A stretch of 6,001 nt of DNA, from the IMG/VR virus record IMGVR_UViG_3300013741_000057. One strand, given 5' to 3'. Position numbers and translations under genes: made by a program. This DNA is from a virus. Lineage: Duplodnaviria; Heunggongvirae; Uroviricota; Caudoviricetes. Each line of letters starts with the position of its first letter. Positions within the stretch are counted from its first letter, which is position 1. The notes under the pieces are model-generated. The model had not been told where the DNA came from, did not search any database, and saw only the letters and a program-made list of their open reading frames with translations. This document shows positions 4,012-4,826 of the stretch, one piece after another.

Positions 4012-4826
4012 GTATGGAGCTGATGGTTAAAGCGATGAAAATTCGAGTGGGTAATCCATTGCGAAAACTGGTTCTGATCAAGCTGGCTGATAATGCCAGC
4101 GATCAGGGTGAGTGCTGGCCCAGCTACCAGCATATTGCTGACCAGTGCGAGATTAGCAAACGTTCTGTGATGAATCATATTGCGGCCCTTTGTGAGTCCG
4201 GGCTGGTAAAAAAAGTCACCCGGAAAGGTGAAAAAGGTAACTCAAGTAATATCTATCTCCTTCATCTTGATGGTGCAGGAGATTCACTAGGGGGTAGTGC
4301 AAATAATTCACTATCTGGTGCAGCAAATTCACCAGGTAGTGCAGGAGTTGCACCAGGGGGTAGTGCAGGAGATTCACCCAGAACCAGTCACTCTTTTGAA
4401 CCAGTCAAAGAACCAGTCAATGAACCAATAGCTGTTGGTGCATCTGCTGATGAGTCTGTGCGAGTTCGTTCAAACCGACCGGAATACTCTCCGGAGTTTG
4501 AGCAGGCATGGCTGGCCTATCCCAAACGTGCTGGTGGCAATTCAAAATCTGCAGCCTTCAAAGCCTGGAAAGCCCGTTTGAATGAGGGGGTAAACCCCGA
4601 AACCATGCTGGAAGGTGTGAAACGCTACGCGGGCTGGGTATCTGCGATGGGTAACAGCGGCACACAATTTGTGAAACAGGCTGTCACGTTCTTTGGTCCG
4701 GATCATCATTTCGAAGAATCCTGGGAAGTTCCTGCGGTATCTGCAGCCAGACGCGAGGACCCGTACTTCAAAGCCAGTTACGACAACGTGGACTACAGCC
4801 AGATCCCGGCAGGATTCAGGGGGTGA
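4008..4826 (+). CDS. Phage replication initiator: N-terminal winged-helix domain, repetitive linker, DnaT-like C-terminal domain
   Basis: RBS GGAGG (3997-4001) 6 nt before ATG 4008. The N-terminus has an HTH-like segment (ISKRSVMNHIAALCESGLVKKV). The C-terminus ...SQIPAGFRG closely resembles the C-terminal end of E. coli DnaT (...SQIPPGFRG) as I recall it. The central linker is encoded by iteron-like DNA repeats. Confidence 0.85.
   Translation: MSMELMVKAMKIRVGNPLRKLVLIKLADNASDQGECWPSYQHIADQCEISKRSVMNHIAALCESGLVKKVTRKGEKGNSSNIYLLHLDGAGDSLGGSANNSLSGAANSPGSAGVAPGGSAGDSPRTSHSFEPVKEPVNEPIAVGASADESVRVRSNRPEYSPEFEQAWLAYPKRAGGNSKSAAFKAWKARLNEGVNPETMLEGVKRYAGWVSAMGNSGTQFVKQAVTFFGPDHHFEESWEVPAVSAARREDPYFKASYDNVDYSQIPAGFRG
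4273..4377 (+). repeat. Five iteron-like repeats GTGCA-N5-T(T/G)CAC spaced 24/21/21/24 bp, candidate replication origin inside the initiator gene
   Basis: Copies at 4273-4287, 4297-4311, 4318-4332, 4339-4353 (perfect palindrome GTGCAGGAGTTGCAC) and 4363-4377. They are followed by three AACCAGTCA direct repeats (4382-4390, 4399-4407, 4411-4419). The layout parallels ori-lambda, which lies inside the O gene linker. Confidence 0.5.

Follow-up and report, generated by a model that had tools for sequence, protein, structure and literature searches.

The DNA analyzed here (the window) is a 6,001-nucleotide stretch of IMG/VR virus record IMGVR_UViG_3300013741_000057 (Caudoviricetes), which its open reading frames (ORFs) and Pfam matches identify as the early-right region of a lambdoid Escherichia coli prophage. 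On the plus strand, the ORF at 4008–4826 encodes a replication initiator of 272 residues, and inside this gene lie five dyad-symmetric repeats followed by a conserved box of 37 base pairs (bp). Comparative analysis of the locus and its relatives suggests, with a probability that we put at about 80%, that the segment 4273–4426 is the replication origin of the prophage, an array of intragenic iterons in the style of phage lambda that would be bound by the prophage's own initiator.

A repeat array within the initiator gene

The pattern GTGCANNNNNTNCAC is found on the plus strand at 4273, 4297, 4318, 4339, and 4363, and the site at 4339 matches on the minus strand too, giving six matches against 0.12 ± 0.37 expected; none of 200 dinucleotide shuffles reaches six. 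The dyads are spaced 24, 21, 21, and 24 bp from start to start, which bears out the five GTGCA-N5-TxCAC repeats at 21–24-bp phasing described in a first-pass annotation of this DNA, and there are zero copies of GTGCA-N5-TNCAC elsewhere in the 6-kb window. Iterons 1 (4273–4287) and 5 (4363–4377) both read GTGCAGGAGATTCAC, the latter adjoining the conserved box, while iteron 2 (4297–4311) reads GTGCAAATAATTCAC and iteron 3 (4318–4332) GTGCAGCAAATTCAC. Iteron 4 (4339–4353; GTGCAGGAGTTGCAC), which carries the pattern on both strands, had been called a perfect palindrome; the description holds for its 5-bp inverted arms but not for its 5-bp center, which is not symmetric. The 24-bp spacer that separates iterons 1 and 2 contains a run of five G residues (4290–4294), and another such run precedes the last iteron (4356–4360), the 24-bp spacing being equal to the 21-bp spacing plus GGG.

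The family-wide 37-bp box (CCAGAACCAGTCACTCTTTTGAACCAGTCAAAGAACC) occupies 4378–4414. Three exact copies of AACCAGTCA, at 4382, 4399, and 4411, had been reported as direct repeats following the dyads, and all three are present (0.05 expected), but only the first two are held by the box. The third belongs to a 12-bp tandem duplication, GAACCAGTCAAA/T, that is lineage-specific and variable in copy number, being expanded in L150, longer by one copy in P0018, and shorter by one copy in P0016; in the window it contributes an extra 12-bp copy (GAACCAGTCAAT) plus GAACC at 4410–4426 (period 12, 2.5 copies in Tandem Repeats Finder). Tandem Repeats Finder and a second repeat finder recover both arrays. 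Directly to the left of the repeats, 4225–4260 is the least stable stretch of the gene in a nearest-neighbor profile (67–70% A+T; −32.5 to −34.3 kcal for each 30 bp, where the gene averages −40.9 ± 2.7), and its synonymous sites are not conserved.

Domain structure of the initiator

The assignment of 4008–4826 as a replication initiator gene, also made in the first-pass annotation, is sustained by a match of the whole protein to PHROG 270, "replication initiation protein" (1e-87), and by an N-terminal winged helix of Pfam family HTH_36 (PF13730; 44.1 bits against a cut-off of 25, residues 17–67), which is annotated in the precomputed records of all 120 top homologs as well. The N-terminal half matches the PHROG "replication initiation O-like" and the C-terminal half the PHROGs "DnaD-like helicase loader" and "primosomal protein." Other Pfam matches of the protein are DnaD_N, at 24.3 bits under its cut-off of 27, and two minor helix–turn–helix families; the C-terminal domain has no Pfam or NCBIfam family match. 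Counterparts of the gene are orf39 of Shigella phage SfV, sb42 of Salmonella phage ST64B, and the gene for the HTH_36 protein in the "Eru6" unit of Shiga-toxin (Stx) phages. Its DNA is 98–100% identical to genes of many E. coli prophages and phages, among them SfV orf39 (annotated "replication protein"), mEp460, Stx2c phages, and Stx2a_WGPS2, with 98–99% identity to SfV orf39 and the Stx2c-phage genes, and the protein is 88% identical to ST64B sb42 and 98.2% identical to the copy in Stx2a_WGPS2. There are 5384 homologs at E ≤ 1e-5. In a set of 5426 complete E. coli genomes, 2718 have a match to some part of the gene, and in 897 at least 80% of it is covered.

AlphaFold2 models residues 1–89 as a winged helix (block predicted local distance difference test score, pLDDT, 73–92), with helices at 3–11, 17–29, 40–47, and 51–64 and strands at 67–73 and 79–85. 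In this N-terminal domain (residues 1–88, coded by 4008–4271), helix 3 (residues 51–64) is the predicted recognition helix and residues 67–85 the predicted β-hairpin wing. The five dyads fall in codons 89–123, and codons 89–137, which hold the dyads and the AACCAGTCA copies, encode GAGDSLGGSANNSLSGAANSPGSAGVAPGGSAGDSPRTSHSFEPVKEPVNEP. Residues 91–157, for which the repeats and the box code, score 29–44 in block pLDDT and are predicted to form a disordered linker between two domains, so that the repeats indeed lie in the linker-coding segment to which they had been assigned. The C-terminal domain (residues ~158–272, coded by 4479–4823) has the PHROG matches named above and a helical model of moderate confidence (block pLDDT mostly 70–77 over residues 160–216), and it is presumed to be an adaptor to the helicase. 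Foldseek returned generic winged helices only (E ≥ 0.011), and these weak matches include the DnaD N-domain 2v79 (E 0.025) and the plasmid RepA N-domain 4pql (E 0.036); no sequence in the PDB matches under E = 0.1.

Two further observations concern the integrity of the gene. In several database proteins (P0047–P0050, P0076, P0027, P0025, and P0040) the N-terminal 70–90% of the initiator is fused to RusA, PerC, or others, and these fusions probably reflect either deletion in decaying prophages or read-through in gene calling. In the CPS-53 prophage of E. coli K-12 and in many other strains, just the last 76 bases of the gene match (query 744–819; window 4744–4826), beside yfdN; this shared 3′ end on a different helix–turn–helix-domain gene is another mosaic junction.

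Conservation of the repeats as DNA

The comparison covered 10 annotated phages, 80 diverse gammaproteobacterial genomes identified with an N-domain profile, and 80 near-identical viral contigs, and its genera include Rahnella, Enterobacter, Xenorhabdus, Photorhabdus, Proteus, Pseudomonas, Shewanella, Marinomonas, Aeromonas, and Haemophilus. The non-redundant sets comprise 77 loci overall and, with the repeat type of the window, 52 loci holding 249 sites. Nearly every relative carries three to seven dyad-symmetric repeats in the same position, the last one abutting the box (CCAGAACCAGTCACTCTTTTGAACCAGTCAAtGAACC). The 249 sites were chained from the last repeat of each locus at 21–24-bp steps with at least 6 of 10 arm positions alike, and because they were chained by similarity to that repeat their selection is partly circular; the arm invariance observed far exceeds the 6/10 threshold. 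The family consensus is TRGTGMA-N5-TKCACY, in which the arm positions are 96–100% invariant whereas the centers carry 0.3–0.8 bit. Spacings between the chained sites are 21, 22, 23, or 24 bp only, most loci with this repeat type have four or five copies, and the final spacing is 24 bp in every locus of this type and in most of the 77 loci.

Since the array lies in coding sequence, it must be asked whether DNA or peptide is being conserved. One alternative holds that the repeats are purely a protein-level feature, a Gly/Ser/Ala/Pro linker that grew by duplication and whose periodicity in the DNA is a by-product. The region does encode a repetitive linker of predicted disorder, and its repeat number changes in whole in-frame units: among E. 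coli proteins that are 88–92% identical it ranges from 1 to 9, with protein lengths of 242, 250, 272, 286, 294, and 302 residues (P0001, P0003, P0021, P0029, P0042, and P0039). Variation in whole units is, however, also what is expected of iterons, and to that extent it supports the origin reading. In P0039 the last repeat and the box have been lost, and this copy is probably a dead origin.

Four features of the sites argue against a linker conserved for its peptide. First, the dyad is kept in a different reading frame at 32 of the 249 sites. In many loci of Pseudomonas, Enterobacter, and Xenorhabdus, repeat 2 is offset by one base, so that the spacings are 23 and 22 bp instead of 24 and 21, and the offset repeat encodes VQEIHQ or VKEFHH instead of SAGDSL (L016, gene positions 291–305; L021–L033; and others). 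Second, asymmetric sites are found in both orientations in 24 of 53 loci, and exact reverse-complement pairs are present within one array, such as GTGCAGGAGATTCAC and GTGAATCTCCTGCAC, which encode the unrelated peptides GAGDS and GESPA; overall, 237 sites encode 108 different hexapeptides. Third, it is the arms that are invariant and the centers, although codon-internal, that vary, and in the 80 near-identical contigs single-nucleotide polymorphisms lie mostly between the arms. Fourth, codon choice is extremely skewed toward the motif: the Ala codon GCA makes up 86% in the linker and 17% in the rest of the same genes, the Leu codon CTA 48% and 6%, and the Ser codon AGT 46% and 15%. It is the DNA motif that dictates which codons the linker uses. 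The homologs thus keep the nucleotide repeats and their 21–24-bp phasing while the peptides change freely, in frame-shifted and inverted copies alike. This is the opposite of the pattern, amino acids kept and periodicity lost, that would have pointed to a purely protein-level repeat, and it is in agreement with the first-pass annotation, which had taken the array for a signal in the DNA. A separate observation concerns L057 (Pseudomonas bharatica), where a like shift in the last repeat results in a protein truncated at 133 residues.

The spacer before the last repeat (4356–4360 in the window) also occurs in two orientations, reading AGGGGGT in 44 of the 77 loci and, in 17 others, the reverse complement ACCCCCT, so that the run of five G or C residues encodes Gly-Gly or Pro-Pro. 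A 24-bp spacing almost always involves such a G5/C5 run, which might act, whichever way it is oriented, as a bend or as a spacing element.

An invariant box next to the last repeat

The box is present in 87 of 91 loci, and its distance from the last repeat, which it abuts, is always the same. Among the 77 non-redundant loci most of its positions are 92–100% conserved, and third codon positions are conserved at least as much as first and second ones. The codons Arg AGA, Ser AGT, His CAC, Ser TCT, and Glu GAA (at both Glu residues) are the only ones used for their residues (100%), Val is encoded by GTC in 96%, and the codon of Pro136 still varies; invariant residues of the N-domain, by comparison, use two to six codons with a top-codon share of 0.23–0.82. 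The box stays unchanged while the third-position GC content of the adjacent N-domain coding region spans 0.26 (Haemophilus) to 0.91 (Pseudomonas), and its mean pairwise nucleotide identity is 0.89, compared with 0.71 for the most conserved core of the N-domain. The absence of synonymous variation in most of the conserved box codons over this range of base composition is a further point against the protein-level linker, which we regard as very improbable. Judged from sequence comparison, the invariant arms, the changes of frame and orientation, the codon bias, and the single-codon box together show that the repeat arms and the box are kept by selection acting on the DNA rather than on the peptide.

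What the box is for is a separate question. It stands exactly at the junction with at least 12 unrelated C-terminal domains and its peptide is conserved too, which would suit either a recombination "linker" used in swaps of the C-domain or a host-factor docking motif, RTSHSFEPVxEP, with no part in an origin. Both ideas are unlikely to be right. As regards docking, amino-acid changes are tolerated (T/I, F/S/L, and P/S) while synonymous changes are almost absent, and third positions are no less conserved than the others, so that the peptide is unlikely to be what chiefly constrains the box. As regards recombination, identity over 37 bp across diverged hosts needs direct purifying selection, of which second-order selection for mosaicism is an unlikely source, and the box keeps a fixed distance from the last repeat. 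Its invariance suggests that the box is recognized by its sequence and is not simply DNA that melts easily.

We favor the box as a candidate origin core, an unwinding or helicase-entry site, and this is the least certain step of the model presented below. A more specific proposal, which we advance tentatively and consider somewhat less probable than its opposite, is that the box and the G5/C5 spacer form an undescribed core origin element of a family of temperate phages of Gammaproteobacteria, which would be read sequence-specifically, as duplex or single strand, either by a conserved host factor or by the part of the initiator that is invariant, and would mark the place of helix opening and helicase entry. 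If this is true, then the N-domain, the repeats, and the box would make up a portable initiator-plus-origin cassette, in which the specificity of the repeats has been retuned many times by a few changes in helix 3 and the wing, creating a natural data set for rules of protein–DNA recognition.

Repeat class and the recognition helix

Relatives with other recognition helices carry other dyads in the same place (GGGCA..TGCCC, GTAGGCC..AGCAC, ATGCCA..TGGCA, and GTGAY..GTCAC). The class GTGMA..TKCAC, to which the window belongs, goes with the helix-3 sequence [KR]RS[VA][MI]NH (52 loci), the GGGCR type with RSTVKxHIR (7 of 7 loci), GTAGGCC..AGCAC with DRSTVRKHIK (7 of 7), ATGCC/ATAGC..TGGCA with SK[ST][SA]VRNHI-like helices (6 of 6), and GTGAY..GTCAC with KR[ST][VA]MRH (3 of 3). 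Asn56 goes with GTGCA and Arg56 with GTGAC in helices that are otherwise about 90% identical. When repeat class is compared with the columns of the alignment, mutual information is highest at residues 50, 52, 53, 55, and 56 and in the wing at 69–79, with repeat class accounting for up to 90% of column entropy (at R52), while equally variable columns elsewhere in the alignment have little mutual information with it. In lambdoid phages, repeat sequences are known to differ in step with the initiator (PMC8022706). That the repeat class tracks helix 3 and the wing fits direct readout of the repeats by the initiator's own N-domain; the association is supportive rather than decisive, because linkage and shared ancestry are uncontrolled.

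The same data bear on the idea that the dyads are operators for another protein of the region. Several DNA-binding proteins are encoded nearby, and the LexA-DNA-binding-domain protein, the PerC-like activator, or the Rha antirepressor would each be a conceivable ligand. Across loci with completely different neighbors, however, the repeats follow the initiator N-domain, and it is the initiator's own recognition helix that their class tracks, which leaves this explanation with very little probability.

A cassette with exchangeable C-terminal domains

Downstream of the box, the C-terminal domains of the 77 loci fall into at least 12 clusters that lack mutual BLAST similarity, and the gene that comes next differs as well, with a DnaB-like helicase, a P-like protein, or a primase-helicase in some loci and none in others. 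When viral contigs were scanned for the exact pattern of the box, there were 74 matches, 67 of them with an in-frame KLADN motif upstream; the other seven also belong to the family and have a longer linker or a disrupted upstream frame. Conversely, a phage that combines an N-domain of the lambda O type with the C-domain of the window (Stx2_14040; L013) carries GGGAAAC-type repeats instead, and no match to the box is found in it even when up to 14 substitutions are allowed. Because the box goes with the N-domain rather than with the C-domain, it can be regarded as forming one unit with the N-domain and the repeats, to which the C-domain is attached as an exchangeable adaptor.

The N-domain module is also encoded on phage-sized circular "plasmid" records of 38–48 kb from E. 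coli, Klebsiella, Microbulbifer, and Shewanella, and ten replicons of Arsenophonus nasoniae carry it (together H122, H124, H127, H129, and H137–H146). Such records may be phage-plasmids or excised prophages and, because they are possibly excised phages, they were not counted as evidence of autonomous replication.

A probable intragenic origin and its proposed mechanism

Collectively, these analyses point to an origin in which binding of the initiator, its oligomerization, unwinding at the box, and recruitment of a helicase follow one another, a sequence of steps that we infer. Dimers of the N-terminal winged-helix domain would bind the five 15-bp dyads. Because the sites are 21–24 bp apart, about two helical turns, the dimers would come to lie on one face of the DNA, and these phased dimers may assemble into a wrapped complex resembling the lambda O-some. 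The resulting strain would open the adjoining 37-bp box, the A+T-rich stretch to the left being a less likely opening site, and the exchangeable C-domain would then recruit the replicative helicase. Since no phage gene for a helicase or loader follows, the helicase would have to be host DnaB, with DnaC. Rightward early transcription would cross the site, as it does in lambda.

Several points weigh against this reading. No binding or origin-activity experiment for this initiator family was found in the literature searched, and both the window and the SfV stretch examined are without a helicase or loader gene. The association between repeat class and recognition helix is confounded by physical linkage, the sites lying within 100 bp of the domain coding region, and by common descent. 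The structure model is good for the N-domain only, with an overall pLDDT of 58.6. Finally, the location of unwinding is uncertain, because the box is modestly A+T-rich (57–63%), its stability being about one SD below the mean of the gene, while the stretch of lowest stability (4225–4260) lies to the left of the repeats, on the opposite side from the box.

The modest A+T content of the DNA flanking the repeats is also what would favor a role other than initiation, in which the dyads bind the initiator mainly for autoregulation or copy-number control, by roadblock or handcuffing, and the origin lies elsewhere in the phage. Plasmid iterons serve both purposes, acting in the origin and in autoregulation or copy control. 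Three considerations make this alternative improbable, albeit less so than those discussed above. The N-domain, repeats, and box travel as a cassette with many different C-domains, as expected for an initiator together with its origin; the dyad has no other copy in the 6-kb early region; and intragenic repeats of this kind are established by experiment as the origin in lambda O and have been annotated likewise, by similarity, in P22 gene 18 (PMC8022706). An origin made up of the dyads and the box remains the reading that we prefer.

Relation to known replication systems

The first-pass annotation had likened the array to ori-lambda within the O gene, and the likeness stands as far as intragenic repeats in an initiator gene are concerned but does not extend to homology with lambda O, which is not detectable. 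In lambda, four iterons starting at 39034, 39054, 39078, and 39101 occupy codons 117–145 of O with spacings of 20, 24, and 23 bp; both systems thus have four or five dyad-symmetric direct repeats about two helical turns apart within the initiator gene, those of the window starting at codon 89, and both initiator genes follow cI, cro, and cII in the rightward early operon. The N-terminal part of lambda O is specific for the repeats and its C-terminal part for the helicase partner, and the same split is proposed for the initiator of the window. Unlike lambda O, however, the latter has an N-domain of Pfam family HTH_36 rather than Phage_rep_O; its sites are 15 bp long with 5-bp arms; the flank of its array is an invariant box of 37 bp, common to phages from Haemophilus to Pseudomonas, in place of the merely A+T-rich flank of lambda; and P-like loader and helicase genes are lacking from the region. 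Because the initiator is not a detectable homolog of lambda O, the two systems resemble each other in architecture and probably in mechanism without belonging to one family.

No homology to lambda O is detectable. Phage_rep_O is not among the Pfam matches, and hhalign gave a probability of 3.7% over 9 columns; this sole match, between residues 136–144 of lambda O (L175; GDCYPSKQG) and residues 34–42 of the window protein (GECWPSYQH), was treated as coincidence. The lambda peptide concerned is itself coded by lambda iterons 3–4.

The arrangement is also reminiscent of the RepA_N plasmids of Firmicutes, whose initiators (for example, RepA of pSK41) have a DnaD-like winged-helix N-domain, a flexible middle, and a host-specific C-domain, and whose rep genes contain the origin repeats in their central part, a further example of an origin within an initiator gene. 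The window initiator has no RepA_N match in a Pfam scan at E ≤ 0.01, and it differs from these systems in belonging to temperate phages of Gammaproteobacteria instead of plasmids.

Within the Stx phages, the gene order of the window is that of the Eru6 arrangement (cI, a Rha/Ash-family gene, and the HTH_36 protein) as defined in PMC8951638, for which Stx2a_WGPS2 is the representative, and in Stx2a_F451, which has a related initiator N-domain, the corresponding position is taken by GGGCA..TGCCC repeats. Gene content is the basis on which the Eru5 and Eru6 units have been classified, with the HTH_36 protein listed (Fagerlund et al. 2022, PMC8951638; Llarena et al. 2021, PMC8044961); these two defining papers make no mention of iterons and locate no origin, and replication of Eru-type phages is described in the literature as unexplored. 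No prior description of this origin or its motifs was found in the literature searched, although the SfV genome paper or Weigel and Seitz (2006) might hold one. The principle of an intragenic origin is textbook knowledge, and origins of the lambda type are regularly put forward for new phages, KIRK being one example; what goes beyond expectation here is the family-wide invariant box and the conservation of the repeats independently of frame and orientation.

The initiator family includes the serotype-converting Shigella phage SfV, Salmonella ST64B, Stx2c phages, and "Eru6" Shiga-toxin phages. Phage replication drives toxin output, and an origin with defined candidate sites would provide a direct handle on replication of the Eru type. 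The locus is, in addition, an unusually clean case of codons dictated by a DNA signal, with sites that survive frame shifts and inversions, and it offers dozens of natural initiator–repeat pairs for studies of winged-helix specificity.

Neighboring genes and RNA elements

Upstream of the initiator gene, the window encodes a cI-type repressor on the minus strand (1116–1790), a cro-like gene (1881–2081), a cII-like gene (2113–2676), an Ash/Rha antirepressor region within the mechanical ORF 2673–3701, which has Ash and Rha Pfam domains, and a small ORF (3787–4011). The Pfam scan places genes for a PerC-like protein, a LexA-DNA-binding-domain protein, and RusA 3′ of it. No gene for a helicase or helicase loader was found in the window, or in SfV between rep and Q. 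The repeat and box site contains no promoter-like sequence, and the only internal terminator candidate is a terminator-like hairpin at chance level on the minus strand. There are zero copies of the DnaA box TTWTNCACA in the whole window. An Rfam scan at gathering level identified no RNA element at 4200–4450, its only matches being the two upstream elements described below.

Both RNA elements lie on the plus strand inside the ORF 2673–3701. One is the Hfq-binding RNA isrK (3033–3109; 67.9 bits) and the other the C4 antisense RNA (3134–3221; 83.6 bits). The true coding sequence of the Rha antirepressor probably starts near 3279. Two runs of 10 masked bases are present in the window, at 509–518 and 3622–3631, and because the second interrupts the Rha-type ORF, the C-terminal reading of that ORF is unreliable. 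Together, isrK, C4, and Ash/Rha look like a c4-ant antirepressor immunity module of the P1/P7 style, situated just 5′ of the replication gene.

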